From NCBI GenBank assembly GCA_019057375.1, contig DXJF01000035.1:1-64000 (forward strand): a stretch of 64,000 bases of DNA, written 5' to 3'. Within the stretch, counting starts at the first letter, position 1. The number at the start of each line of letters is the position of its first letter. This document shows, piece after piece, positions 2,689-45,297 of this stretch. The notes under the pieces were generated by a model that did no database searches, was not told the origin of the DNA, and saw only the letters and a list, made by a program, of their open reading frames with translations. This DNA is from Candidatus Heimdallarchaeota archaeon. GTDB taxonomy: Archaea > Asgardarchaeota > Heimdallarchaeia > Heimdallarchaeales > Heimdallarchaeaceae. Both the position numbers and the translations under genes were made by a program.

Positions 2689-2925
2689 ATGGAAAAGAAA
2701 CAAAGTAAGTACTCGAACTCTAAATTAGGCAAAATAGATATTGAGACAGAGAAAGCATTTCTAGCTCTTATAGATGGTTTTGTTGACAAACCTATCTGGA
2801 TACCTAAGTCTGTTGTTGATCCTGCAACTAAACTCATTAGACAATGGTTCATTGACCAGAAGGATAAGGAACTGAAGGATTTTCAGAGAACCAAAAAACA
2901 AGCAGAACTGGAAGATTTCATCTAA
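2689..2925 (+). CDS. Small hypothetical protein, virus/MGE-like
   Basis: 78 aa with ETEKAFL...WIPKS pattern reminiscent of small viral hypothetical proteins; partial second copy at 3454-3503. Confidence 0.5.
   Translation: MEKKQSKYSNSKLGKIDIETEKAFLALIDGFVDKPIWIPKSVVDPATKLIRQWFIDQKDKELKDFQRTKKQAELEDFI
2722..2771 (+). repeat. Imperfect 50-bp direct repeat, copy 1
   Basis: 43/50 identical to 3454-3503 by manual alignment. Confidence 0.85.
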
Positions 2926-2937
2926 ATAGATTTAGAT

Positions 2938-3384
2938 TCACTTCAGCGTTTTTCCAATGTCTGATAAGTAGCCTTGTAACTGATCCATTGTTTCTCTCTT
3001 CAATAAAATAGTGCACTCATGTAATCTCCATGTGTTTCTTTGTGTCATGCCTGCCCTTTCTTCATGGATTTGTTTTTCTTTCAAGAATTTTATAGAGTAA
3101 CTCAAAGCTTCAAATTCTAGAATATCTACAGGCAGAGGAAGTGATAATTCTCCACCTAATCTTTCATTATTTTCATATGAGTAGAGGTTAAGTTTGCTAA
3201 TAAATTTTGGATAATCATTCACAAAGCTTAGATCACCAGCTTCTAGTTTTTCAGGTTTAATTGTAGAATGCATCCATTGTTGAGGAATTGGTCTTTGAGA
3301 ATTTTCTTGTAGAACTGTAGGAAAGATTATCGTTGTTGTTGTCCATTTATCTTGAAATTTAGATTTAGTTATGCGAATTCTCAT
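2938..3384 (-). CDS. Hypothetical protein (148 aa)
   Basis: ORF between the two repeat copies; no recognised motif. Confidence 0.55.
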   Translation of the reverse strand: MRIRITKSKFQDKWTTTTIIFPTVLQENSQRPIPQQWMHSTIKPEKLEAGDLSFVNDYPKFISKLNLYSYENNERLGGELSLPLPVDILEFEALSYSIKFLKEKQIHEERAGMTQRNTWRLHECTILLKRETMDQLQGYLSDIGKTLK

Positions 3385-26103: not shown

Positions 26104-27108
26104 ATGGATGGAGATGAGCGCTACTCAAGACAACAACTTATTCCCGGATGGGATCAACTAAAACTTGACAATAGTTCTGTTGTTCTAGTGGGAGTTGGGG
26201 CAATAGGTAGCTATGTAGCAACTGTACTTGTCTCTTCTGGAATAGGGAAACTTTCAATTATTGACTTTGATACAATAGAAGTTTCGAATCTGAATCGACA
26301 ATTATTGTTTAAAGATGAGGATGTTGGTAAATCAAAATCAGAAACAGCTGTACAAAGATTGAAAGAAATAAATCCTATTATCGAAATTGATTTTTATCAT
26401 AAAAAGATGGAAGATGTTTCAGTAACAGTTTATGAGCAAGCAAATGTTATAGTGGCTTGTTTAGATACTTTTATTGGAAGAAGATGGATCAATTCGATGG
26501 CTATTCGAGTGAAAAAACCACTTGTTATGGGTGGTATGTTTGCTTTCTTGGGTAATGCACAAGTAATTATTCCATATGAAACAGCGTGTTTTGAATGCCA
26601 GCCTTTGGTACCAGACGAAGAGTTAGCTCAAGCATGCACTCCATTTGGGAAAGAAAGGAAAAAAGAGAGGAAAGAAATTGATGCAGAACCACCATTACCA
26701 GCTGTTGCTACATTATCATCAATTATTGGGGGAATAATGGCTCAGGAAGCATTAAAGCTAATTCTGGAACTAGGTGATAAATTGGAAAACTATCTCTTCT
26801 ATGATGGTCTTCATAATGCAACTACAATTCTAGAACTAAGAAAATCAAAGGAATGTCCAACTTGTGGAGAGATGTATAAATTAGAACAAATCGAGTTTGT
26901 AGCGCTTCCAACTGAAACTGTAAAAGAACTCAGAATGAGATTAATGTTGACTTATGGATTAGAAAAACCAGACTTAATGGTGCGAGGAAAATTGTTAGAA
27001 GTTGAAGCATTACTTGAGGATGCGCTGAATTCTAAAAAGTCTGTTGTATTCGTTCTAGACAAGAATCTAGCCCAACCAATCAAAATAGTATTACAATTAT
27101 CTGAGTAA
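26104..27108 (+). CDS. Ubiquitin-activating enzyme E1-like
   Basis: RYSRQ, GVGAIG, DFDTIEVSNLNRQ, CFEC and CPTC zinc pairs, candidate catalytic Cys (QACT), C-terminal extension; next to ubiquitin. Confidence 0.92.
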   Translation: MDGDERYSRQQLIPGWDQLKLDNSSVVLVGVGAIGSYVATVLVSSGIGKLSIIDFDTIEVSNLNRQLLFKDEDVGKSKSETAVQRLKEINPIIEIDFYHKKMEDVSVTVYEQANVIVACLDTFIGRRWINSMAIRVKKPLVMGGMFAFLGNAQVIIPYETACFECQPLVPDEELAQACTPFGKERKKERKEIDAEPPLPAVATLSSIIGGIMAQEALKLILELGDKLENYLFYDGLHNATTILELRKSKECPTCGEMYKLEQIEFVALPTETVKELRMRLMLTYGLEKPDLMVRGKLLEVEALLEDALNSKKSVVFVLDKNLAQPIKIVLQLSE

Positions 27109-27149
27109 TATGGCTTTTTTCGCTTTTCAAATGCAACATTTTTTAAACT

Positions 27150-28598
27150 TTGATTGGTATCAAATTATCTAGAGATATAATTAGAAAGGTGAACAAAATT
27201 ACCACAGACGATTTCCATCTTGCAAATGAAATGCAATTAGTATTCGATAAACAAATAAATTTTGAACCCGTTAGAGGTAATTTAAAACAATGGAAAGGCT
27301 ATGTTGGAACAATAGAAGGTACTGAAATACCAATTTTTGCCAACATTTACATTCAGGATGGTTTCCCTGAAATTCCTCCATTTGTTGATATTACTCCTAA
27401 AGTAAATCACCCTAATGTGGATGAAGATAGCACATTAAGTATGCGTCTTCTTGCAGAATGGGAACCTAGATATCATATTTATCAGGTTATGATTGATATA
27501 AAACAACTTTTCATCAATGTTCCAGCTAAAACATACAAGACAAAAACCAAGAAGCCAAAAGGGGAACAAAGATTTTTAACATTGCCTAGAGCAACAATTC
27601 CTGTAAAGACAATACCTCAAGCTTCTTTCGCAAGTGTAGATCCAAGAATTGAGGAAGAAAGACGCTCTTTAGATAAAACAATTATCAATTATCAAGATAA
27701 AATAGAGCATGTTTCCAGAGATATAGAAAAAGAAAGAGAAGCTCTATTGAAAGAAGGCGGAATGGCTGTACAGAGTAGAACTAAAGAGATTTCTATATCA
27801 TTAGATGAAGATTTGAGAGCTGAATCATTAGCTATTCAAGATACTCTAGAAATAGTACAGGAAAAATTTGAAGATGGTGATATGACCAATATTGATTTCC
27901 TCAAATTACATAAAAGATATACTAAAAAAGGTTTTATAGCTGAGAAACAACTCACTCAAGTTAAAAGTAGCTCAAGTGGTGACATGACAAAAGCAGAAGA
28001 AAAAATATTGAATTTGGAAGCTGATCTGTTTGCTTCAATTGCAACTTTAGACAATTTAGTTAGAAGTTACGAAAAAAGTGAAATTGAGCAAATTGCTTAT
28101 AGAAAACAACTTCGTGCTCTCATTAGAGGAATTTTCAAAACAAGATTAGAATTAGAAAAAATAGGCTTTAATTTAGATGATTTTGTGAAACGAGAGAATC
28201 TAAATAATAGATATCAAAAGGGAATCAAACAACTCATGGTTGTTGAAGGGGAAGAAACTGCAGATACCAGCTCAATTCCATTTGATACCCTCAAGAAAAT
28301 CCCATCTAAAACAGCTGATTTCGTTTCATCTGCGATTGAACTTATTGATTTAACTAGATTAAGATCAGTAGCTAGAGCAGATCTCATAATTGCAGACATC
28401 GAAGAAATGATTCACATTCTGACAACATTTCCTTCAATACCAAAAGACCATTGGGTTATTGGAGATATGAATAATTGGCGTGAAATTATAGGAAAATATA
28501 AACCTCAGGAGATCATTAAAGAAGAAGATTGCGAAAAATTAGAATTTCAAGCAGCTCGTTGGTTAAATGACTTTCGAAGAGTATTGAAAGAACTTTAA
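27150..28598 (+). CDS. ESCRT-I single-chain fusion: UEV + Vps23 steadiness box + Vps28
   Basis: FPEIPP/HPN UBC fold with Ser at the catalytic Cys position; AIQDTL..DFLK steadiness box; DLFASIATLDNL and ADFVSSAIELID...W...LEF Vps28 segments. Confidence 0.88.
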   Translation: MIGIKLSRDIIRKVNKITTDDFHLANEMQLVFDKQINFEPVRGNLKQWKGYVGTIEGTEIPIFANIYIQDGFPEIPPFVDITPKVNHPNVDEDSTLSMRLLAEWEPRYHIYQVMIDIKQLFINVPAKTYKTKTKKPKGEQRFLTLPRATIPVKTIPQASFASVDPRIEEERRSLDKTIINYQDKIEHVSRDIEKEREALLKEGGMAVQSRTKEISISLDEDLRAESLAIQDTLEIVQEKFEDGDMTNIDFLKLHKRYTKKGFIAEKQLTQVKSSSSGDMTKAEEKILNLEADLFASIATLDNLVRSYEKSEIEQIAYRKQLRALIRGIFKTRLELEKIGFNLDDFVKRENLNNRYQKGIKQLMVVEGEETADTSSIPFDTLKKIPSKTADFVSSAIELIDLTRLRSVARADLIIADIEEMIHILTTFPSIPKDHWVIGDMNNWREIIGKYKPQEIIKEEDCEKLEFQAARWLNDFRRVLKEL

Positions 28599-28662
28599 TA
28601 TCAACAAAAGACTTGAAAATTTCTAGATCCCTTTCTTTCCATTCTTTAAGATAAGTTACTAG

Positions 28663-28977
28663 GTGAATTACTTGGAAAGAACTAGCTCTATTAACGAGAT
28701 ATTTGTTAACATTCGAAAAGAAATGTTTGAATTAATCAACATGATAGAGATTAAGATAGATGTGGGCTATATTCTTGAGGAATTAGAAGATATTTCATAC
28801 GAAATTAAGAATTTAGGAGAAGAAGGGAAGCAAATCCATGAAGAAATGATGAATATCTATAATTCATATTTTAACAAATATAAAAACAAACTTGCAGCTT
28901 TTCTTTCACCAAGGGAGAGTAGCTCTTTAACTGAAAAGATAAAGAAATGGCTTTTAGAATTATCAAACACTATATAA
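28663..28977 (+). CDS. Small helical hypothetical protein inside the ESCRT cluster
   Basis: 104 aa, GTG start, between ESCRT-I and Vps22. Confidence 0.6.
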   Translation: MNYLERTSSINEIFVNIRKEMFELINMIEIKIDVGYILEELEDISYEIKNLGEEGKQIHEEMMNIYNSYFNKYKNKLAAFLSPRESSSLTEKIKKWLLELSNTI

Positions 28978-29046
28978 TAATCATTTAATCAATTAATTTG
29001 AGAAGATATAAATAAGTCCTAGACAATAACAAAGCTGGAGATAGAA

Positions 29047-29772
29047 GTGGGTTTAAGAGATATAGAAAAAAAGATTAAAATTAAGTCAGCTTTTCAAGTA
29101 AAAGCGGCAGAGCTAATGATTAAAGAATTAGAACAGATGGTAAATAATATTAGCGAAGTCAAAAAACAACTGAAAAAGTTTGAGAAAAAATACGGTGATA
29201 AAATCTCTGAAAACAAAGATTATTATGATAAATTAGCAAATCTGAGAGAAGAATTAGGATTACCCACCGAAATTGGACGTTTTGACTGGAAAGAAACTCC
29301 AACTCTCAAAGATAAACTTACTGGAAAGGGCTTCTTTGACGTATTAGCTAATGAAATTCTTGAAATAGGGCAACAGATGATATCAGAAAACGGTGGAATT
29401 ATGGCCATCGGAGAACTATTCACACAGCTAAATAAAACTCGTCCTGGGAGGATGGTTTCAATTGATGATATGTATCGATCCTTGGAGAAATTAATCAATA
29501 CTCAATTAATACCACCATATAGAGTGTTAGATTCAGGATTGAAGATTGTTGAATTTGTTCCTGTTGAGTTTAGTCTAGACCATGATGTTATTCTAAATTA
29601 TGCTTCCAGAGTTGGTTTTGTTACAAAGGAAGATTTACTCATGAGAACAAGTTGGACTGAAGAACGAATAGATAGAAGTTTAAAATTCTTTGAAGAAAAT
29701 AGCATAGCTCGAGTTGACCGAAGCTATTCTGAAGGAGTAAAATACTGGTTCCCCGGTCTAATGGGATTATAG
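29047..29772 (+). CDS. vps22: ESCRT-II Vps22/EAP30 (Vps22/36-like)
   Basis: MGL N-terminus, FF..LA.EILE, NGGIM, S.DD...SLEKL, tandem winged helices, YWFP end. Confidence 0.92.
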   Translation: MGLRDIEKKIKIKSAFQVKAAELMIKELEQMVNNISEVKKQLKKFEKKYGDKISENKDYYDKLANLREELGLPTEIGRFDWKETPTLKDKLTGKGFFDVLANEILEIGQQMISENGGIMAIGELFTQLNKTRPGRMVSIDDMYRSLEKLINTQLIPPYRVLDSGLKIVEFVPVEFSLDHDVILNYASRVGFVTKEDLLMRTSWTEERIDRSLKFFEENSIARVDRSYSEGVKYWFPGLMGL

Positions 29773-29788
29773 TTATAGAAAAGGTCAA

Positions 29789-30565
29789 TTAAAACACTTT
29801 ATCAGCTTCAAACTGAATTATTGTTTTTTCTTTGTTTAACCAACGAGCAACTTTACGTTCTATTAGCATTTCACATACAATAATAAGATCATCGGCTGGT
29901 AAATCCCCCCATTTTTGGTCCATTTGAGTTAAATCGTAAAGCGAGTGTACTTCAACCACCCTTCCAGTATCTATCATGAAGTCTAATAATGAATCCGCCC
30001 ATTCTTCATTTGATTTCCAATAAATACGAGCTCTTGTTTTTGTTTCTTCATCTAGCCAACGAGCAATATTCTGATGAACCAAATGATCAATGATACTTCT
30101 TACTTGTCCAAGTGTTAATCTTTTACCTAATTTCTTGTTATTGAAGGGGTGAACACTTCTCAAGTCATTAATGTTAAATATATGAATAACAAAAATACGT
30201 GAGTAATCTAATACTATAGCAGACCAACTCTGGAGCCATGATTCAACTTGATCAGATTTCTTAGGTTTGATATACATCCATGGCCTTTTTACCCATTCTG
30301 GAAGTTCTTCCTCAAATTCTAATTCAAGCATAGCCCTTTGATCTTTAGAGAGATCTTCTTTTACAAAAATAGCATCAACAGGCAGAGTAGCTTTTAATTC
30401 TTCAGCTGTAATCTCCAAACCTTTAATACTAGCTTCAATTAGTTTTAATTTCTCATCTGAAATCTCTTTTTCATCTTTTAATTTTTTTAAATCTATTTCA
30501 GATGATTTCTCCTTCTTAGGCTTCTTCTTCTCAGTGGTGGACATGGATTTAACCTCTAAAATCAT
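29789..30565 (-). CDS. vps25: ESCRT-II Vps25 with charged N-terminal extension
   Basis: P.W..P.MY, W..W..IVLDY, PF.NKKL.KRL, IYWKS.EEWA. Confidence 0.88.
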   Translation of the reverse strand: MILEVKSMSTTEKKKPKKEKSSEIDLKKLKDEKEISDEKLKLIEASIKGLEITAEELKATLPVDAIFVKEDLSKDQRAMLELEFEEELPEWVKRPWMYIKPKKSDQVESWLQSWSAIVLDYSRIFVIHIFNINDLRSVHPFNNKKLGKRLTLGQVRSIIDHLVHQNIARWLDEETKTRARIYWKSNEEWADSLLDFMIDTGRVVEVHSLYDLTQMDQKWGDLPADDLIIVCEMLIERKVARWLNKEKTIIQFEADKVF

Positions 30566-31716
30566 GTGCTGCCGAATTCTTCATTCCAGTTATCGTATTT
30601 TTCCATTTCATCATCACTTACAGAGGGGTTGATTGATTCAATTGCTTCAAGAAAATCACCTTGAGTTACTGCCCGGGCAGCAACTGAAGTATCTTCAATA
30701 GCTCCAGCCATATCAAGTTCTCTGATTGGAGTCATGATTGCTTCTCTACACACCATTGCAATATCAGAACCTGAATAACCTTCTGTAATTTCTGCTAGAA
30801 CTTCGAAATCAGCATCTTCAGCTAGTTCAACACCCTTGGTATTGAAAAGAAAAATAGCTGAACGAGCTGGTAAATCTGGTAAAGGAATGTAAATTCTTCT
30901 CTCGAATCTTCTTCTGAATGCTCCGTCTATAGATTCAGGCATATTGGTAGCACCTACAGTAACTATTCTGTCAGTTTCGGAACTCGATAGTCCGTCCATT
31001 GATGTTAAGAGCTCAGTTTTAACTCTACGCATTGCATCATGTTCTCCACCTCTGGCGCCGGCTAAAGCATCAACTTCATCAATAAAAATAATACTGGGTT
31101 GTTTTTCATCTGCTAATTCAAAAAGCTGTTTAACCAATTTCTCCGATTCACCAAGCCATTTTGAAATGATTGAGGATGCACTAACGTTGAAGAAAGTTGC
31201 TTCTACTTCAGCTGCTGTTGCTTTTGCTAAAAGAGTTTTACCACAACCAGGAGGACCAAAAAGCAAAATACCTTTCCAAGGTTTTCTTGCTCCAGAGAAT
31301 AAATCAGGTCTCATCAGAGGTAAAACAATAGCTTCTCTCAAGGTTTGCTTTGCGGTTTCTAAACCTGCTATATCTTCTAAAGTAATATTTGGTTTCTCTG
31401 TAACGATTATATCAGATATAGCATTTTCTAGTTTTTCTTCCTCATCATCACTTCCTGCAGTGGATTTCCTTTCTTTTCTCTTCTCTAAAAGATCCCTTAA
31501 TTCCTTTGCTCTACTAATGTACATATTGGCTTTCTTCTTAAGAGAACGAGCAACTTGAGGGTTTCTTTCAAATTTTATGGCTTTCATTAAAGCTTCAGCA
31601 GCATCTAAATAGTGTGGAATAGCTTCGCTATAGTTTTTTTCTTTATCAAAGGAATAGGCTTTGACTGCAAAATCTCTTGCATGATCTATTAATCCCTGAG
31701 CAGACACGTGATTCAC
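30562..31716 (-). CDS. vps4: Vps4 AAA ATPase with MIT domain
   Basis: MIT helix pattern (A...D...Y.EAI..Y..A), GPPGCGKT, SKWLGESEK, IFIDEVD, RRFERRI. Confidence 0.96.
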   Translation of the reverse strand: MNHVSAQGLIDHARDFAVKAYSFDKEKNYSEAIPHYLDAAEALMKAIKFERNPQVARSLKKKANMYISRAKELRDLLEKRKERKSTAGSDDEEEKLENAISDIIVTEKPNITLEDIAGLETAKQTLREAIVLPLMRPDLFSGARKPWKGILLFGPPGCGKTLLAKATAAEVEATFFNVSASSIISKWLGESEKLVKQLFELADEKQPSIIFIDEVDALAGARGGEHDAMRRVKTELLTSMDGLSSSETDRIVTVGATNMPESIDGAFRRRFERRIYIPLPDLPARSAIFLFNTKGVELAEDADFEVLAEITEGYSGSDIAMVCREAIMTPIRELDMAGAIEDTSVAARAVTQGDFLEAIESINPSVSDDEMEKYDNWNEEFGST

Positions 31717-31841
31717 AACCTCTATCTATTTATTCCATTTATCTAATATAAAATGTTTCATTTTGTTTCATACCAAATTGATAAATTTCATTGTACGGAT
31801 TGTAAGAACTAACAAAAATAAAAATACAAAAAGAGGAAGAA

Positions 31842-32498
31842 CTAATTATCTTCACTCATTTTCTTCTTTAATCCCTCAAGCTCATCTTCAAGCTCTGATG
31901 TATCTTCTTCTTTGTCACCAGGAGTTCCAACAGGAGTTGAAGGAAGACCACTAACATCAGGTAAACTTGTTGTTGTACCTAAATCCATCTCAGCTTCCAA
32001 TTGAGCTAACTGCTCATCAATAGCCGCATCATCTTCAAAATCTAGAATGCCTTCAGATAAGCTTGGATCAGATAGAGCTTCGGTCATCATTTCAATTTGA
32101 TCTCTCTGTTCCATTACAGAATCCATAACATGTTCTGTTCTCTCAGGAGAAACGCTTTTGATTTTCTCTCCAACAACTTTAGTACCAAGTTCCATAGCTT
32201 TTACAGTCTCTGCTGTTGAAGTAGCTGTTTGTATGCTATCTATCTGAGCTTGTAGATTCATTCCTGTGTTATGAACTGTGTTCAGCCTTTTCATGAAAAC
32301 TGCTCTTCTTTTTAGAGCTTGTCTTGCTCCAGCTTTATTACCAGCTTTGAGCATCTTTGAGGCTAAGATTTTCTGTTCATCTGATTGTCTTTCAAGATTT
32401 CTAGCTTCTGCTTGTAATCTGTTTTGCTGTCCTTTGAGAGTAGATAATGCATCAGCATCTTCTTTTCTCTTTTTTCCAAAAAGCCAATTCTTAACCAT
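31842..32498 (-). CDS. ESCRT-III Snf7/Vps20/32/60-type
   Basis: WLFGKK N-terminus, A.QALKRR, D.D.QLAQLE, LPDV..TP proline-rich region, acidic terminal helix. Confidence 0.92.
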   Translation of the reverse strand: MVKNWLFGKKRKEDADALSTLKGQQNRLQAEARNLERQSDEQKILASKMLKAGNKAGARQALKRRAVFMKRLNTVHNTGMNLQAQIDSIQTATSTAETVKAMELGTKVVGEKIKSVSPERTEHVMDSVMEQRDQIEMMTEALSDPSLSEGILDFEDDAAIDEQLAQLEAEMDLGTTTSLPDVSGLPSTPVGTPGDKEEDTSELEDELEGLKKKMSEDN

Positions 32499-32511
32499 TT
32501 TTATTCACCTT

Positions 32512-33126
32512 TTAATCCTCTTCTCTTCTTCTTAATTTCTGGATTTCATCCTCTAAATCATCTGTTTGCACTACACCAACAGTTGGTAATCCAGCTTGAG
32601 TGGAAACACCTAATTCAGCAGCTGTTTGTTCAATTAATCTATCGACTTCAGCTGGATCTGTATCAGCTACCAGTAAATCGTCAATACCATCTTCAATGGT
32701 TCCTGTTGACTCTTCGATTCCATCAATAGAACTTTCCATATCTTGAATAACTCGATCTAAATCTGGAATCTGTAATTGAGCATTTGCGGTTCGTAAAGCA
32801 GAAGCAATACCATGCATTTCTTCAGCCATACTTGCTGCAGTATCAGATCGTTCTAATTTAAAGATAAGACCATTCATACGCGAAACTAACTTTTGATAAC
32901 CAAATTCCCATCTTCTATTGCGTACAATATCAGTAGCAAATAATCTTGCAGATTCCAAATCTCCACGTTGGATGTTTTGTTTCATTTTCAACTGCATCTT
33001 GGATTCATCTCGTGAAAGTTTCCTTTGTGCTCTTTCTAATCTTCTTACAGTTAATCGAAGATTAATTATATGATCACGAGGACTCTTTTTTGTACCCAAA
33101 AGCCAACCCATAAAGTCACGGAACAT
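32512..33126 (-). CDS. ESCRT-III Vps2/24/46-type
   Basis: LR...RRLER, GD..SARLFA.DIVR, EVDRLIEQTAAELG, MIM1-like DLEDEIQKLRR end. Confidence 0.92.
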   Translation of the reverse strand: MFRDFMGWLLGTKKSPRDHIINLRLTVRRLERAQRKLSRDESKMQLKMKQNIQRGDLESARLFATDIVRNRRWEFGYQKLVSRMNGLIFKLERSDTAASMAEEMHGIASALRTANAQLQIPDLDRVIQDMESSIDGIEESTGTIEDGIDDLLVADTDPAEVDRLIEQTAAELGVSTQAGLPTVGVVQTDDLEDEIQKLRRREED

Positions 33127-33287: not shown

Positions 33288-33587
33288 ATGCGTTTTCAGA
33301 AGAAATCTAAAAGAAATTTTGCATTATTGACAATAATAACAAGTTTAGTGATTCTTGCTTCAGAAACAGCTTTGGCTCAAACTGCAGATTTAACACCACT
33401 CGGTGCAGCTCTAGCAGTTGGTATAGCCGGAGGTGCTGCCGCTATAGCAATGGGGATGGCAGGAAGTGCAGCCATAGGTGCTATTGTGGAAAAACCTGAA
33501 GTATTCGGAAAAGCTTTTCTCTTCATAGTGTTGATTGAAGCTGTGGCTATTTATGGTCTACTAGTAGCTATTCTACTTGTATTCTAA
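33288..33587 (+). CDS. atpK: A/V-type ATP synthase proteolipid subunit K/c with N-terminal leader
   Basis: GAALAVGIAG, EKPEVFGK, IEAVAIYGL (ion-binding Glu). Confidence 0.93.
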   Translation: MRFQKKSKRNFALLTIITSLVILASETALAQTADLTPLGAALAVGIAGGAAAIAMGMAGSAAIGAIVEKPEVFGKAFLFIVLIEAVAIYGLLVAILLVF

Positions 33588-33621
33588 TTCCCTTTCTTTA
33601 CTATCCTTTTTTGTGATTATT

Positions 33622-33993
33622 ATGGCAGAGAATACTAAAAATCTAAAATCACCAGCTGGAATCAAACTAGCATCTTTGAAGGATTTGGTCAGATTAGTCA
33701 TATCCAGTGTTGGACCAGACCGAATTGCAGGATATGTTGGTCATTTTGAGGAAGTCGATAGGGCAATATATTTCGTTTTTAACACAAGTCTAGGATATTA
33801 CGAACTTAATGCACTTCCAATAATTGTGTGGACTGATGAAGAAGAAATGCCTACAAAGTCATTCATAAGATATAAAACAGCAACAAATGAAACAATTGAA
33901 TTCTCTAATGATGCAACAGATCCTAAATGGTTAAGCATCCCCATTGTAAAATTTGTGATAATGCCTGAATTTCTTAAAGTATGGAAGAATTAG
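33622..33993 (+). CDS. Hypothetical protein (archaeal)
   Basis: Probable start MAENTK at 33622; IKLASLKDLVRL N-terminus; no function assignable. Confidence 0.6.
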   Translation: MAENTKNLKSPAGIKLASLKDLVRLVISSVGPDRIAGYVGHFEEVDRAIYFVFNTSLGYYELNALPIIVWTDEEEMPTKSFIRYKTATNETIEFSNDATDPKWLSIPIVKFVIMPEFLKVWKN

Positions 33994-34016: not shown

Positions 34017-35492
34017 TCAAAGTTCCCACATGTCATCAAATTCTTCACTTTTTCTTTGGATATCATCTAAATGTCGTTTGAGCCTATGATGTTCGCTGGT
34101 TAGTTTTCTTAATAATCCATCTATACCTTTGGTACCTCGAGATCCATGCCTTCTGGTTTCATTTAATCGATGTATCTTTCGTTCTACAGCTAGTAGTTGC
34201 TCAAACAGTTTCTTGAATCTCGCATCTTGTCCTTCTCTCCAGTATAATTCACGTTTTAATTCACGTTTGTTAAGCAAATAGGCACGAAGGTGACTTACAT
34301 TTCTTTGTATGTTGGTTTTTAATTCATTAATGGTGAGTGAATAGTACTTGAGGTCTTCAATTATTGAGGATTTATGAATTGAATAATCGATGTAATTTTC
34401 GATGATTTCAAAATAAATCATAAATTGTTCAAGACTCTCATTTCTTCCAAGAAACGAATATGAATCTAATCTGGTTTTGAAGCGAAACATGTTGCGAGCT
34501 AATAATCTGGAAACATATTGCTTGTTTATAATATACGACAAGCTTATAGTCTCTTTTGTTTTTAACCTAACATTAAACAGACCCTTTTCTCGGAGTAAGT
34601 ATAAATTTTTACTAGTCAGAACAACAAGATATTTCTTTGGGAATTTACTATTCTTCTTTAGCCAAATCCGTGGAAGAATAGAAATTAGATGTTCTTCTTT
34701 GTCTTCAGGTAGAAGATGATGAATCTTACTTAATAAACGAAATTGAAAACCAAGAAAATCTACTTTTTGATTAAGGGTTTGGAAATCTTCATTCATCTCA
34801 TTAAACTTTGACTTTATGGTTGTATCAAGTAAATCTAATCGATTTTGAAGTAAATTAAGGATTTCTTCCCCTCTTTCTATGTTATCCACGTTTGTAAATC
34901 TCATATAACCGATTGCACGTAGTTTCTCATCAACCATTGCAAAAGTATCATTTTCAAATTTAACAAGTTGATCAATGAATATTGAAATTTTACTTCTAAG
35001 TAAAGTAATTTCATCTTCCACATCTCCAAAAAGCATAATTTTCGCTTTTCTCATTTCAAAGACGTTCTTAACAATTTCAAGATATTTCTGAGTAAGATCC
35101 CACACTTGAGCAAGCTTCTTGTTCAACAGAGTAAATGAAGAAAATATCAGATGTGGAAGTTGTTGATGATAAAGAAGTCCATCTTCAACATCTATTGATT
35201 TACACCATTCACAGCTATTAGTAGGCTCATTTCTGGAAAATTCTGTAGCTGAGCCACACTTTTGACATTTTGAGTCAAGGCTCTCAGTTTCACAGGTTGA
35301 GCAGAAGTATACTGTATTTGAAATATGAATATGTTCAGTACAAAGTTTTCTCTTACATGATTTACAATAGTATTGTGCTGGACCACTACAAAAGCTACAA
35401 CTAGATATTGCCGGCAAACATAACACCCAGTATTTAGTAGAAATTGATAATTCTGTTTTATTTATAGATGTAATATCTGGGAAATAGTGCAT
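34017..35492 (-). CDS. Multi-zinc-finger (B-box-like) / coiled-coil / PH-like protein
   Basis: Cx2Cx7Cx2Cx4Cx2H plus three further CxxC; long heptad regions; LVVLTSKNLYLL beta-rich segment. Confidence 0.7.
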   Translation of the reverse strand: MHYFPDITSINKTELSISTKYWVLCLPAISSCSFCSGPAQYYCKSCKRKLCTEHIHISNTVYFCSTCETESLDSKCQKCGSATEFSRNEPTNSCEWCKSIDVEDGLLYHQQLPHLIFSSFTLLNKKLAQVWDLTQKYLEIVKNVFEMRKAKIMLFGDVEDEITLLRSKISIFIDQLVKFENDTFAMVDEKLRAIGYMRFTNVDNIERGEEILNLLQNRLDLLDTTIKSKFNEMNEDFQTLNQKVDFLGFQFRLLSKIHHLLPEDKEEHLISILPRIWLKKNSKFPKKYLVVLTSKNLYLLREKGLFNVRLKTKETISLSYIINKQYVSRLLARNMFRFKTRLDSYSFLGRNESLEQFMIYFEIIENYIDYSIHKSSIIEDLKYYSLTINELKTNIQRNVSHLRAYLLNKRELKRELYWREGQDARFKKLFEQLLAVERKIHRLNETRRHGSRGTKGIDGLLRKLTSEHHRLKRHLDDIQRKSEEFDDMWEL

Positions 35493-42093: not shown

Positions 42094-45000
42094 ATGGCAA
42101 AGTTTAAACTAGTAAAAGTTCAGATACCAGTCAAAAATACAAATACACTATTGACAAAGATATCTTCTCTTAATATCTTTGAACAAATAATCGTTGACCC
42201 TCAAAGTCCTAAAGAGCAAGCAAGAATACAAACAACTAAAGACATTATGGAGGACAGATGGGAAAGAATAGTGGGGTTGAGCAAAGCTCTAAATATTCAA
42301 TTGGAAGACCTTTCATCATTAAAAGAAGAGGATTTAGTTGCTATTAATAATCATGATGAAGTAATTAAGGGTTTAGACGTTTTTCTGGAAAAATACGAAA
42401 ATCAGATAATAGAAAAATCCAGTGAATTACAAAAACTGAAAAAAGAGAATAGAATTCTCTCATCTTTGAAACAATTCCAAAGCAATTTGGATGACGAATT
42501 TTCAATCGATCTATTATCTTCAAGCTCAGAAACTTTCACTGTTTTAGGAGAAATTCCTAGTGGATATGAAGAAATTATACGCTTTTACTTAAATGAAGTT
42601 ACAGCAGGTCAAATTTTTTTCTGGAGTTCTTCTACAGACAATAATGAAAAGAAAGTAATGCTGTGTATTTCTTTAACTGATTATAAAGAACGTATAGGAG
42701 AGATTCTCAGGAAAAATTATTTCAATGAAACAGAATTTGAACTTGAACTTCTAAAATCCATAGAAAAAATAAGAGAGACAACAAGAATAGAAAAACTTCA
42801 TTCTGAAGTAAATCAAGATATAGAAAAAATTGAAGATGACATTAGACAGTTTTCTACTGAATTAGCAGAAAAAATTAGGTACTATCTAACTCTCATAAAA
42901 GCAACTCATAAAACTCTAACACTGGAAGAAAGAGGTCGTACTACATCAAAAAACTTTACTTTATGGGGTTGGATTACATCAAAAAATTACCTCATTTTTT
43001 TTGAAACTATTAATTCTTTACAAATAGATAGTAACATAGTGATACTGGAAGATGTTCCGCTATCGCGTAAAAAAGAAAGAGATGCTGAGCAAGAACTACT
43101 AGTTAAAAAGCAATTAGATACGGAAGAAAGTAAAATAGATAGCTATATTCCCCAGCTCCCACATACTGGTGAAGGTGGAGAAGGATTTCTTTTTGCAAAA
43201 AAAGCATTATTTGTGAGATTGGAGAGTCCAGAGGAATCATCCCGTCAATTCATTTCTCATTTGCACTCTCTTAACGCTGTTCATCCAGTGAAAATTGGAT
43301 CATTAGATGGAAGTACTCTAGAGAAGGCTAATAATTTGAGACAAGAACTGAGTCAGTATCTATCAAGAGTTAAGCGATTGTCAAATATGCTCAAATTAAA
43401 AGATACAAAAGAACAAAATACTGAGAAATATGATATTATTGATAATTATGACCACTCAAAAGCTTTCATAGAAAATTTCTTGCGTGAAAATGAGGAGAAG
43501 ATCACAAAAGCTTCTGATTCTTATGAGGAAATTCAGAAGAAACAAAGCCAGGTAAAATTATCTCTACCTTTTGAAGAAGGTCTCAAAGAAAAAGGTATTG
43601 ATGCAGTTTTACTTCAAAGTGGTTTCCAAACTGTAACTTACTTGGGAGTTGTTCCTAAATCCAACCTTAAATCTGTGAGATTCTTTTTGAGTGAAGTCAC
43701 CGATAATAATCTTGTATTCTGGGATTCAGAGCCTACAGATTCAAGTTCTAATGAGAAGAATATCTTAATTCTATCTTTAAAAGAGTATGAAAACGCAATT
43801 TTGCGTGTTTTAAATGAATATTCTTTCCAAGCAATAGACTACGATTTATCGCTGGTTGAAAGAAAGGTTTCATTGAAAGACACTTTAAAAGAAATTGAAA
43901 TAGAATTGAAGGAAAGTGAAGAAAAACTTCTAGAAATTAAGAATCAGGCTATAAATAAGTTAACTGCTTGTGAAGAGCTAATTAATGTTGAAAGCAATCG
44001 CTTAAACACCATTGAACTATGCCAAATATCTGAAGGAAAGATTGTTCTATGGGGGTGGACATCTAAAACAGTTTTAATGCAACTGAATAAAAGCAAGAAA
44101 GATTTATCATTCAAGATGAAAATTACTGAAAATCCTGAAGTTCCATTAGTCAATCCTGCTATAACAAAAAGAGGAAAAGTATTTGGAGCAGTAAGAGGAA
44201 TTGTAGGTGGTATTGGACATCCAAACACTAAACAAGTTGATCCTTATTCAATTGTTAGGTTTACATTTCCATTTTTATTTGGTATCATGTTTGCAGATAT
44301 TGGACATGGAATTTTATTGTCATTGGTTGCAGGATTCTTGATATATAAGAAAAAGAAGAATAAAATTGAGCCAGATGAATCGATGACAGGATATCTTTAT
44401 TCTGGTGCGGAATTACTTCTTTTCTGTGGTTTTTCAGCAACGATATTTGGGTTCTTCTTTGGATCATTACTAGGAGACGAACATTTCATACCAGAACTGA
44501 TGCACAAGGTAGGAATTAACTGGATACCAATAATCAATCCGCTACATGAAACAAAATTATTCTTAATTGTTGCTCTAATAATAGGATTTCTAATGATTCA
44601 ATTAGGAGTATTATTAAAAGTTTATCAAAACATGAGATATGGTCACGGGTTTGCATCTTGGGCCTCCCCTCTTTCATTATCTGTAGTTTATGTGGGTATA
44701 TTCGCCATGCTTTACAATATCATTGTAGGAGTGAACGGAATATATTGGCAAGCATTTCATTTTACACTTAATCAGTTACCATCAGCGTTTGTATATCTAG
44801 TCGGACTAGTCCCAGTATTGTTTATTTTAGAGTATATTCATGCTAAGTCTGATGGAATTATGGATGCAGTTGACCACATTATTGCACTCATATCAAACAC
44901 ACTTTCATTCAGCCGAATTATGGCACTCTTACTTGTTCATGCAATCTTAAGTGGATTACCATTTACTTTAACTGGAGTGGATTTAGTGGCAGGTGTATCA

Positions 45001-45297
45001 ACATTTTCAGGAGCATTCCTAGACGTAGCACATATTGATTTGTCACATTTTGCTGGAGGATTAATACATGGCCATTATGCTTCAGCTCTTAGTCTCTCTT
45101 GGATATGGTGGGTTGTAGGAATTTTATTTGCAGTATTCATAATATTACCATTAGAAGGATTATTATCGTTCCTTAACACACTAAGGCTTCACTGGGTTGA
45201 ATGGTTCTCTAAGTTCTATACTGGAGATGGTAAAGAATTCCTTCCCTTAAAAGAAAAACTTGTTTCAATCAATTTTGTCAGGCAAAAAGGTAGTTAA
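42094..45297 (+). CDS. atpI: A/V-type ATP synthase subunit I/a with duplicated cytoplasmic N-terminal domain (1067 aa)
   Basis: DP, FLFGIMFADIGHG, NTLSFSRIMAL (essential Arg), LRLHWVEWFSKFY.G.G; two homologous N-terminal units each ending LWGW. Confidence 0.93.
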   Translation: MAKFKLVKVQIPVKNTNTLLTKISSLNIFEQIIVDPQSPKEQARIQTTKDIMEDRWERIVGLSKALNIQLEDLSSLKEEDLVAINNHDEVIKGLDVFLEKYENQIIEKSSELQKLKKENRILSSLKQFQSNLDDEFSIDLLSSSSETFTVLGEIPSGYEEIIRFYLNEVTAGQIFFWSSSTDNNEKKVMLCISLTDYKERIGEILRKNYFNETEFELELLKSIEKIRETTRIEKLHSEVNQDIEKIEDDIRQFSTELAEKIRYYLTLIKATHKTLTLEERGRTTSKNFTLWGWITSKNYLIFFETINSLQIDSNIVILEDVPLSRKKERDAEQELLVKKQLDTEESKIDSYIPQLPHTGEGGEGFLFAKKALFVRLESPEESSRQFISHLHSLNAVHPVKIGSLDGSTLEKANNLRQELSQYLSRVKRLSNMLKLKDTKEQNTEKYDIIDNYDHSKAFIENFLRENEEKITKASDSYEEIQKKQSQVKLSLPFEEGLKEKGIDAVLLQSGFQTVTYLGVVPKSNLKSVRFFLSEVTDNNLVFWDSEPTDSSSNEKNILILSLKEYENAILRVLNEYSFQAIDYDLSLVERKVSLKDTLKEIEIELKESEEKLLEIKNQAINKLTACEELINVESNRLNTIELCQISEGKIVLWGWTSKTVLMQLNKSKKDLSFKMKITENPEVPLVNPAITKRGKVFGAVRGIVGGIGHPNTKQVDPYSIVRFTFPFLFGIMFADIGHGILLSLVAGFLIYKKKKNKIEPDESMTGYLYSGAELLLFCGFSATIFGFFFGSLLGDEHFIPELMHKVGINWIPIINPLHETKLFLIVALIIGFLMIQLGVLLKVYQNMRYGHGFASWASPLSLSVVYVGIFAMLYNIIVGVNGIYWQAFHFTLNQLPSAFVYLVGLVPVLFILEYIHAKSDGIMDAVDHIIALISNTLSFSRIMALLLVHAILSGLPFTLTGVDLVAGVSTFSGAFLDVAHIDLSHFAGGLIHGHYASALSLSWIWWVVGILFAVFIILPLEGLLSFLNTLRLHWVEWFSKFYTGDGKEFLPLKEKLVSINFVRQKGS

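Follow-up and report, generated by a model that had tools for sequence, protein, structure and literature searches.

The ESCRT machinery of Asgard archaea is the best available model for the beginnings of eukaryotic membrane remodelling. In the 64,000-nucleotide stretch of heimdallarchaeial DNA analysed here (the window), a gene on the (-) strand stands next to a ubiquitin-ESCRT cluster and raises the question of what its product contributes to that machinery. The cluster extends over 26104..33126 on both strands, with genes for an E1-like protein, a UEV-Vps23core-Vps28 fusion (27150-28598), orf104 (28663-28977) and Vps22 (29047-29772) on the (+) strand and for Vps25, Vps4 and two Snf7 proteins on the (-) strand. 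The stop codon of the target gene (34017-34019) and the ESCRT-III (Snf7) gene, which starts at 33126, are 890 bp apart, in agreement with the distance of about 900 bp given in a first-pass annotation, and an AtpK-like proteolipid (33288-33587, (+)) and orf138 (33577-33993, (+)) lie in between. This annotation had presented the protein as a candidate for either a missing E3 ligase or a membrane-targeting adaptor.

The interval 34017..35492 (-) is a single open frame whose product combines 12 zinc ligands with long helices, a domain rich in beta-strands and a helical hairpin at its end. All the motifs listed previously were recovered in its translation, among them RIWLKK..KYLVVLTSKNLYLLREKG and a helical C-terminus. 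The listed ORF extends to an ATG at 35492, which was rejected as the start codon because the N-termini of homologues of 466-469 aa coincide with GTG 35426 or TTG 35417, because this ATG is not kept in a congener, and because a conserved TATA-box-like block, CCAGATATTACAT..TATAAATAAAA (35456..35480, (-)), lies downstream of it. The block sits within the 5' extension of the maximal ORF, about 30-36 nt before GTG 35426; it is invariant in four genomes from two genera and may represent a promoter. Translation probably starts from one of these two codons, GTG 35426 or TTG 35417, giving a probable coding sequence of 34017..35426 (-) for a protein of 469 aa from the GTG, used below for numbering, or 466 aa from the TTG.

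Within its own family, the protein is encoded by one gene copy per genome in 30/30 genomes. A profile built on Heimdall sequences only retrieved relatives in 274 of 400 Asgard genomes, representing 70 of 85 genera, and matched the Loki-group members with an E-value of about 1e-34. Using hhalign, the window's subfamily was aligned with the Loki group (probability 98.7%, E 2e-16, 360 columns) and with a group of proteins of ~530 aa (98.7%, 452 columns, C-terminus included). The target is the Heimdallarchaeaceae orthologue of a gene already present in a published supplement, where the orthologue of Heimdall AB_125 is cog.006820, "Triple Zn ribbon fused to PH domain", within the order aminotransferase / target / arCOG04275 (uncharacterised) / AtpK / Vps24 / Vps20 (Makarova et al. 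2024, mBio, PMC10936438). The Loki form is cog.011556, "Znr_CC_PH_SB", described as a 'likely ESCRT-I component' with a PH domain 'expected to be membrane associated' (PMC10936438), and the gene order PepD-L35Ae-target-MetE-Snf7 of our Loki-group locus L064 is that of the published cog.011556 locus of Lokiarchaeum GC14_75. The same study separates the two asCOGs, and cog.006820 is not marked there as belonging to ESCRT (PMC10936438). Judged by the profile comparisons, cog.006820 and Znr_CC_PH_SB are one homologous family, a link that is new here. Searching the PDB sequences by phmmer returned no matches to the target protein, and the ESM Atlas gave a weak lead (score 0.78) to a cluster of Asgard hypothetical proteins with bPH_3 in 13% of its members.

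The synteny with ESCRT genes that the first-pass annotation had put forward for checking was found across the phylum, the gene being no more than ~1.2 kb from an ESCRT-III gene in 18 of the 20 distant loci sampled. Five of these loci carry it inside a complete Vps22-Vps25-Vps4-ESCRT-III cluster, and in loci L077 and L078 it stands beside Vps25, Vps4 and two Snf7 genes. Within its own family it adjoins the ESCRT cluster in three genera, and in a second family it lies beside UEV and Vps28; the adjacency was found again in 8 further families with differing local arrangements. In one genus of its own family the gene is ~25 kb away from ESCRT, and in two other Heimdallarchaeial families it is unlinked to ESCRT and adjoins Ras/Rab-like GTPase genes. 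Phyletic coupling is also imperfect: in family f5 of the class, Vps28 occurs in 21/22 genomes and the target protein in 1/22 (E 1.7e-4), and therefore ESCRT-I can exist without it.

An AlphaFold2 model of the protein (pLDDT 85.6, pTM 0.67) comprises four parts: a three-zinc module comes first and is followed by a helical bundle, then by an unsplit PH domain and finally by a C-terminal hairpin. The zinc ligands, as many as three four-ligand sites require, are C10-x2-C13-x7-C21-x2-C24-x4-C29-x2-H32, C42xxC45, C54xxC57 and C72xxC75. All 12 positions are kept in 30 family members, with 11 invariant cysteines and always Cys or His at the H32 position; since members outside the window protein's own subfamily are no more than 13-19% identical to it, this conservation is far above chance. 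The B-box type 1 pattern attributed to the first six ligands (residues 10-32, 35331..35399, (-)) held in part, as these residues do match B-box profiles, weakly and always below cut-off. Matches to zf-B_box were obtained for 14/30 members (best E 4.4e-5; window protein E 0.018-0.021), all under the 24.1-bit cut-off; the ANCHR-like_BBOX profile matched 9/30 members below threshold, and comparison with the B-boxes of TRIM2, TRIM28 and PML gave E-values of 7e-4 to 0.017.

DSSP analysis of the models placed two straight strands (33-42 and 62-72) in residues 33-71 (35214..35330, (-)), with C42xxC45 and C54xxC57 between them, and this segment would form an inserted beta-arm tipped by the third zinc site. 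From the same strand pattern, we infer that the last ligand pair, C72xxC75 (35202..35213, (-)), which is invariant across members, would close a cross-brace with C21/C24. The top structural neighbours of the module were B-box, ZZ and RING cross-brace domains with Z-scores of 2.6-3.8, which is the chance range for small domains. One B-box superposed 44 of 45 residues on the module at 2.2 Å, and the B-box/ZZ superpositions cover model residues 4-85 yet align only ~44 residues. Foldseek with the isolated module produced no match at E <= 0.001, the top rows being zinc-ribbon-bearing enzymes and one PML B1-box fragment. The models suggest for the zinc module a core resembling a B-box or ZZ domain into which a zinc-tipped arm is inserted, and we consider this a better description than the published one.

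The antiparallel helical bundle (residues 83-238, 34713..35180, (-)) is modelled with pLDDT mostly of 85-96 and consists of DSSP helices 83-106, 108-127, 134-171 and 182-238, the last continuing into the PH domain. We read helices 83-127 as one kinked arm, which would make a bundle of three long antiparallel arms. The motif R126...E137 (R-x-A-x-I-x-L-F-P/G-x-V/I-E; 35016..35051, (-)), located in the turn that links the second arm to helix 134-171, contains the only residues other than cysteine that are invariant throughout the phylum-wide family. The PH fold proposed earlier for the middle domain was borne out by VIA-align: residues 243-347 (34386..34700, (-)) form a beta-sandwich with a C-terminal helix that superposes on solved PH domains with Z 10-13 and rmsd 2-3.7 Å over 95-125 residues. 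The comparison with a split PH domain did not survive: the PH is uninterrupted, and the zinc sites stand at the N-terminus, unlike those of yeast Vps36, which are inserted. Neighbours of the PH region include Trio, Dbs, Lam6, TAPP1 and the EAP45 GLUE domain (2dx5), the latter at Z 10.7, which other PH domains equal or exceed. Among the 30 members, profile matches in this region were to bPH_3 (8/30), GRAM (4/30) and, weakly, Vps36 GLUE (3/30, best E 1.8e-4). The beta1-beta2 loop is Lys-rich (WLKKNSKFPKKY), and a basic loop is present across all lineages.

The C-terminal antiparallel helical hairpin (residues 388-469, 34020..34265, (-)) occupies the position of the steadiness box of relatives. 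The steadiness-box signature was not found in the window's own subfamily by hhalign against the Vps23 steadiness box (probability 0.1%), and jackhmmer from the window's UEV-Vps23-Vps28 protein gave no steadiness-box match to this subfamily. The C-termini of non-Heimdall members matched the Vps23 steadiness box at 96.7% probability (E 4e-10), against 2% for an ESCRT-III hairpin control, and the own-subfamily hairpin aligned with the C-termini of other members at 45% (E 2e-4). The same jackhmmer search collected nine family ORFs already in round 1, and in the final-round domain table the family-ORF matches fall at the steadiness-box region of the UEV-Vps23-Vps28 protein. The family profile also matched the yeast Vps23 core structures 2p22, 2f66 and 2caz (E 0.004-0.045). 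We infer that the hairpin is a degenerate steadiness box in Heimdallarchaeaceae and a clear Vps23-type one in other lineages; because the signature is undetectable in the window's subfamily, headpiece docking may be lost there.

These data make it probable that the target gene encodes an orthologue in the Asgard-specific Znr_CC_PH_SB family, a non-enzymatic accessory or adaptor subunit acting with the ESCRT machinery at membranes. The membrane-targeting half of the first-pass proposal agrees with the published inference for the family (PMC10936438). The basic beta1-beta2 loop would allow the PH domain to anchor the protein to anionic membrane; in such a model the PH fold by itself is no proof of lipid binding. 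The C-terminal hairpin would dock on the ESCRT-I headpiece of the UEV-Vps23-Vps28 fusion, a place filled by Vps37 in eukaryotes. The B-box/ZZ-like zinc module with its zinc-tipped arm may mediate, together with the helical bundle, protein contacts, either by self-association, as in B-box/coiled-coil scaffolds, or by binding of ubiquitin or cargo, as do the zinc fingers of Vps36 and Vps27.

A TRIM-like or B-box-type ubiquitin E3, supplying the ligase missing from the cluster, would fit the position of the gene adjoining the ubiquitin-ESCRT locus, the B-box spacing with its sub-threshold Pfam matches, the cross-brace domains among the structural neighbours, and a helix that starts at residue 83 immediately after the zinc module, as the coiled coil follows the B-box in TRIM / RBCC proteins. 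However, the Pfam search of the target protein found no RING or U-box, nor is there a HECT or RBR domain; the TRIM-defining RING is absent because the protein begins only 9 residues before the first ligand. The B-box matches remain under curated cut-offs, with Z-scores of at most 3.8, and the main function of B-boxes in TRIMs is self-assembly, not the binding of an E2. Nor did the premise that the E3 is missing hold up, because RING and E2 genes occur elsewhere in the genome: at least 11 canonical RING-H2 (zf-RING_2) matches above the Pfam cut-off lie away from the cluster, as do two or three further UBC-fold genes (two strong E2 genes and a weaker UBC-fold match), and on one contig a RING gene and an E2 gene are separated by ~1.7 kb. 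Our reading is that the protein does not act as a ubiquitin ligase; an E3 role is unsupported and, as an account of the gene, very improbable. Foldseek with the whole model pointed elsewhere, its top matches being DH-PH RhoGEF tandems (E about 1e-6). Ras/Rab-like GTPase genes adjoin the target in families f4 and f7 (on both sides in locus L083), and a Yip1-domain gene follows it in family f2. The protein could then work in trafficking linked to small GTPases, as an effector with a PH domain or as an exchange factor of DH-PH-like type, the ESCRT adjacency being inherited gene order. Alignments over whole DH-PH tandems nevertheless gave TM 0.19-0.26, mostly at rmsd 11-20 Å (best 4.7 Å over 163 residues, 6d8z), against 3-3.7 Å for PH-only alignments. 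A DH-PH RhoGEF identity was rejected since good superposition by VIA-align is confined to the PH and the helix before it, on which the matches rest. Four DSSP helices are also unlike the DH fold, which is built of many helices; Asgard genomes carry a great many small GTPase genes, and inherited order alone hardly explains adjacency in 8 further families with differing arrangements. We regard this account as improbable.

Closer to ESCRT itself, the target might be a Vps36-type ESCRT-II equivalent, in which a GLUE-like membrane- and ubiquitin-binding head has the Vps22 dimer, not ESCRT-I, as partner. Arguing for it are the matches of the PH region of some members to the Vps36 GLUE, GRAM and bPH profiles, the place of EAP45 GLUE among the neighbours of the PH region, and lineage f26, in which the Zn-helical-PH body is fused to an EAP30 (Vps22/36) domain replacing the hairpin; moreover, no full-length Vps36 has been found in Asgard archaea (PMC9192718). 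The target protein itself, however, gave no EAP30 match and lacks winged-helix domains; its PH is not split, and many other PH domains equal or beat GLUE. Most lineages bear a Vps23-type steadiness box, an ESCRT-I feature, and for the EAP30 part of the f26 fusion the match to Vps22 (E 5.5e-6) is better than that to Vps36 (E 3.4e-3). This makes a Vps36-type subunit quite improbable. A broader scenario, which we regard as speculative and rather unlikely, would make the Zn-helical-PH body the archaeal equivalent of the Vps36 head that binds membrane and ubiquitin, and perhaps also its evolutionary origin. The body would have moved between ESCRT-I docking (steadiness box, most Asgards) and ESCRT-II docking (EAP30, f26), the Heimdallarchaeaceae form being intermediate or re-targeted and the zinc module a prokaryotic B-box-type cross-brace.

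As a probable ESCRT-linked adaptor, the family is the obvious candidate for bringing archaeal ESCRT to membranes and ubiquitylated cargo without ESCRT-0, Vps37 or Vps36. The window's copy adds little by itself, being the orthologue of a gene in a published supplement. The increments are the one-family link between two asCOGs, the finding of a steadiness box undetectable in Heimdallarchaeaceae, the redescription of the zinc module, and the f26 fusion of the same body to EAP30, a Vps36-like architecture.

Among known systems, Vps36/EAP45 (GLUE, NZF fingers in yeast, EAP30) shares with the target a PH-fold module and zinc fingers in an ESCRT setting, with an expected role in membrane and possibly ubiquitin binding. 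In contrast, the target has an unsplit PH and N-terminal, non-NZF zinc sites, the EAP30 winged-helix part appears only in the f26 fusion relative, and no specific sequence relationship between the two was found. With the Vps37 and Vps23 steadiness-box subunits it shares a C-terminal helical hairpin after long helices, homologous in other Asgard lineages to the Vps23 steadiness box, with the signature undetectable in the window's subfamily; the target has no UEV or Mod(r) region, and Vps37 has neither zinc nor PH module. TRIM/RBCC scaffolds and the B-box of ANCHR (ZFYVE19) have in common with it a cross-brace-like zinc module, the B-box spacing of six ligands and a subsequent antiparallel helical bundle. 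It differs from TRIM/RBCC proteins by having no RING, by a last ligand pair that is Cys-Cys and follows a ~40-residue zinc-tipped insertion, and by a PH and hairpin where TRIMs carry PRY-SPRY and other C-termini. Compared with Znr_CC_PH_SB, the window subfamily has no detectable steadiness-box signature and a His, not Cys, as sixth ligand, and the window protein, at 466-469 aa, does not reach the length of its relatives (~530 and 640-730 aa) because it is without the long low-complexity linker before the hairpin. It is nevertheless homologous to Znr_CC_PH_SB over most or all of its length, and shares with this protein and cog.006820 the domain order of zinc module, helical region, PH and C-terminal hairpin as well as the ESCRT neighbourhood, the cog.006820 locus of AB_125 having a gene order identical to that of the window.

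Translation of the ORF at 34017..35492 (-) gave a stop-free product of 491 amino acids, in which the zinc motifs, long helices, beta-rich stretch and helical C-terminus reported by the first-pass annotation were all found. The zinc ligands (C10xxC13-x7-C21xxC24-x4-C29xxH32, then C42xxC45, C54xxC57 and C72xxC75, numbered on the 469-residue form initiated at GTG 35426) are followed by long helices, the beta-rich RIWLKK...KYLVVLTSKNLYLLREKG segment and a helical C-terminus. Because the homologues of this protein, 466-469 amino acids long, start at the position of GTG 35426 or TTG 35417, the annotated start appears to be wrong and needs correcting to one of these two codons. ATG 35492 is not present in a congener. 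Downstream of it, the block CCAGATATTACAT..TATAAATAAAA at 35456-35480, conserved across two genera, has the look and the spacing of an archaeal TATA element, which would place the transcript start just before the GTG.

A distance of 890 bp, close to that given by the first-pass annotation, separates the stop codon of the gene from the start of the nearer Snf7/ESCRT-III gene (32512..33126, -), and the interval is occupied by a gene for an AtpK-like proteolipid and by an ORF of 138 aa. The former (33288-33587, +; proteolipid c-subunit, Pfam ATP-synt_C, E 1.4e-18) stands alone, separated by 8.5 kb from an AtpI-like gene (42094-45297, +), and its placement between ESCRT-III and the target is kept in three sampled genera of Heimdallarchaeaceae and in the published AB_125 locus. 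The latter (33577-33993, +) had no match in Pfam; three genera of the family keep it beside ESCRT-III, and its position matches that of the arCOG04275 'uncharacterized protein' in the AB_125 locus.

The window's genome contains one copy of the gene, and the protein family is present in all 30 genomes of Heimdallarchaeaceae. Homologues named at NCBI come from Candidatus Heimdallarchaeaceae or Heimdallarchaeota, and all are called 'hypothetical' except one, a 'B-box zinc finger protein'. Across the phylum, a profile built solely from Heimdallarchaeial sequences found matches in 274/400 Asgard genomes and 70/85 genera, with open frames of ~500, ~530 or 640-730 aa depending on the lineage. Synteny was studied in 20 loci from ten families, two of those in the window's own class. 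The homologue was found at most about 1.2 kb from an ESCRT-III gene in 18 of these loci, which clearly contradicts the refuting case named in the first-pass annotation, that homologues are never ESCRT-linked; in five of the 18 it lies inside a complete Vps22-Vps25-Vps4-ESCRT-III cluster, and in two more loci (L077 and L078) its neighbours are Vps25, Vps4 and two Snf7 genes. Within Heimdallarchaeaceae, the gene adjoins the ESCRT cluster in three genera and is about 25 kb away from it in a fourth. In a second family (f2), it is located upstream of a Yip1-domain gene (L035:11552-12391), UEV and Vps28. Two further Heimdallarchaeial families (f4 and f7) show no linkage of the gene to Vps28; there its neighbours are Ras/Rab-like small GTPase genes (L083:7324-11502; L036:9671-12091; L037:1977-5293), one of which is a 557-578-aa multidomain form. 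Lastly, in family f5, represented by 22 genomes (3-6 Mb) of a single genus, Vps28 was detected in 21 genomes and the present protein in a single one (E 1.7e-4), a pattern which points to loss, or divergence past detection, in a lineage keeping ESCRT-I.

Eleven cysteines are invariant in 30 family members, of which those from other subfamilies share only 13-19% identity with the window protein. At the sixth ligand position the window protein has a His, whereas Cys is found elsewhere, and the twelve ligands are predicted to form three zinc sites. Sub-threshold but consistent matches to Pfam zf-B_box were obtained for 14/30 members (best E 4.4e-5) and, likewise below threshold, to the ANCHR-like B-box for 9/30, while the family profile matched the B-boxes of TRIM2, TRIM28 and PML (E 7e-4 to 0.017) and, over residues 42-76, RPB12-type ribbons. 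Modelled in isolation (pLDDT 86.1), the zinc module gave no Foldseek match at E <= 0.001. Its best VIA Z of 3.8 is within chance range, yet the match list consists mostly of B-box, ZZ and RING cross-brace domains, whose superpositions run over model residues ~4-85 yet pair only ~44 residues; for the B-box 2yvr, 44/45 residues superpose at an rmsd of 2.2 A. DSSP assigned two straight 10-11-residue strands (33-42 and 62-72), which are too long to link the ligands of one zinc site, and we therefore infer an inserted-arm topology. Read from this strand pattern, the ligand pairing suggests a B-box/ZZ-like binuclear core (C10/C13 with C29/H32, C21/C24 with C72/C75) carrying a long inserted beta-arm with a third zinc at its tip (C42/C45 with C54/C57).

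The AlphaFold2 model of the window protein, obtained from a 27-sequence alignment, is confident (mean pLDDT 85.6, pTM 0.67). After the beta-rich zinc module (residues 8-82), four helices assigned by DSSP (83-106, 108-127, 134-171 and 182-238) form an antiparallel bundle, in which residues 83-127 may be read as a single kinked arm; next come a beta-sandwich that ends in a helix (243-347) and, beyond some short helices, two long helices folded into a hairpin (388-427 and 433-466). Helix 134-171 is preceded by an R-x-A-x-I-x-L-F-P/G-x-V/I-E turn (35016-35051, -) containing R126 and E137, the sole invariant non-ligand (non-cysteine) residues across the phylum-wide family, which mark a conserved site. 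Exhaustive structural comparison aligned residues ~228-351 with many PH domains, including those of Trio, Dbs, Vav, Lam6, TAPP1 and ArhGAP9 (Z 10-13, rmsd 2-3.7 A, 95-125 residues), and with the EAP45 GLUE domain (Z 10.7, rmsd 2.9 A, 96 residues). The PH-like middle domain proposed earlier is thus borne out in the model; unlike the split PH (GLUE) domain of Vps36, also evoked at that stage, it is contiguous. For the whole model, the best Foldseek matches were DH-PH RhoGEF tandems (TM 0.19-0.26). A DH domain was rejected: alignments including the helical region mostly gave an rmsd of 11-20 A (at best 4.7 A over 163 residues, 6d8z) against about 3 A for PH-only alignments, and only the PH and the helix leading into it are common to the tandems. 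The C-terminal hairpin matched helical hairpins of a generic kind, among them CHMP4B and SMC coiled coils, and is uninformative alone.

Non-Heimdall members carry a G-x-I-x-x-E-x-[YF]-x-[KR]-x-x-R motif within their last ~60-90 residues, and their C-termini aligned with Vps23 steadiness boxes at an hhalign probability of 96.7% (E 4e-10), versus 2% for an ESCRT-III hairpin control. When the UEV-Vps23core-Vps28 protein of the window was used as query, nine non-Heimdall family ORFs were matched by round 1 of jackhmmer, at query positions ~210-275 in the final-round domain table, corresponding to the Pfam Vps23_core region. The family profile also touches 2p22, 2f66 and 2caz, structures of the yeast Vps23 core. 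The C-terminus of the window subfamily showed no detectable similarity to the Vps23 steadiness box (hhalign probability 0.1%); the model still shows its hairpin, which aligns by position to the C-termini of other members (probability 45%, E 2e-4). The steadiness box thus seems to have decayed in this subfamily, and in Heimdallarchaeaceae the protein may therefore dock less strongly, or differently, onto the ESCRT-I headpiece.

The B-box-like ligands had led to the proposal of a TRIM-like E3 ligase filling the E3 gap of the cluster, a reading that we regard as very improbable. TRIM proteins are defined by a RING preceding the B-box; here only 9 residues lie ahead of the first zinc ligand, and in Pfam neither the window protein nor any other member gave a RING, U-box, HECT or RBR signal. 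The premise of a missing E3 fails as well, as the window's genome holds 14 zf-RING_2 matches, 11 of them above the Pfam cut-off, and has three UBC-fold matches elsewhere, two of them strong E2 genes and the third weaker (four UBC-fold matches genome-wide). On another contig of that genome (G000:C97:929-3228), ~1.7 kb separates a RING-H2-like match (929-1066, below the Pfam cut-off) from a strongly matching UBC-fold E2 gene (2755-3228). We favor a non-enzymatic adaptor. What stands of the earlier interpretation is the PH fold together with the ESCRT link and the role as adaptor, but not the E3. The PH domain, whose beta1-beta2 loop is basic in all lineages, would bind the membrane, the C-terminal hairpin would contact ESCRT-I at the position of eukaryotic Vps37, and the B-box/ZZ-like module and helical bundle could mediate self-association, or ubiquitin or cargo binding. 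Against this adaptor model stand the apparent decay of the steadiness box in the window subfamily, the unlinking of the gene from ESCRT in two Heimdallarchaeial families and its presence in 1/22 genomes of a family with Vps28 in 21/22.

In family f26, an EAP30 (Vps22/36) domain at residues 460-585 (Pfam E 1.8e-11) takes the place of the steadiness-box hairpin at the end of the zinc-helical-PH body. This fusion, 601 aa long at L081:9401-11203 (+, G298:C138), is carried by three protein clusters of 601-610 aa; its PH region matches the Vps36 GLUE profile (E 1.8e-4), its EAP30 part is nearer Vps22 than Vps36, and its locus also holds separate Vps22, Vps28 and UEV-Vps23 genes. The main text of neither PMC10936438 nor PMC9192718 mentions this Vps36-like architecture of an Asgard lineage.

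The gene under study is already described as a member of a known Asgard family, to which the present data bring modest increments. Makarova et al. (PMC10936438) named the family Znr_CC_PH_SB (cog.011556), likely ancestral in Asgardarchaeota, and considered it 'a likely ESCRT-I component' with a PH domain 'expected to be membrane associated'; the cog.006820 gene is without an ESCRT-component flag in their data. The window subfamily aligned with the 640-730-aa group (hhalign probability 98.7%, E 2e-16, 360 columns) and with the ~530-aa group (98.7%, 452 columns, C-terminus included), and at the level of sequence profiles cog.006820 and cog.011556 are one family. The representative long-group locus, PepD-L35Ae-target-MetE-Snf7, is identical in order to the published Lokiarchaeum GC14_75 neighbourhood of cog.011556, and the gene order of the published cog.006820 locus (AB_125; PMC10936438) is exactly that of the window.
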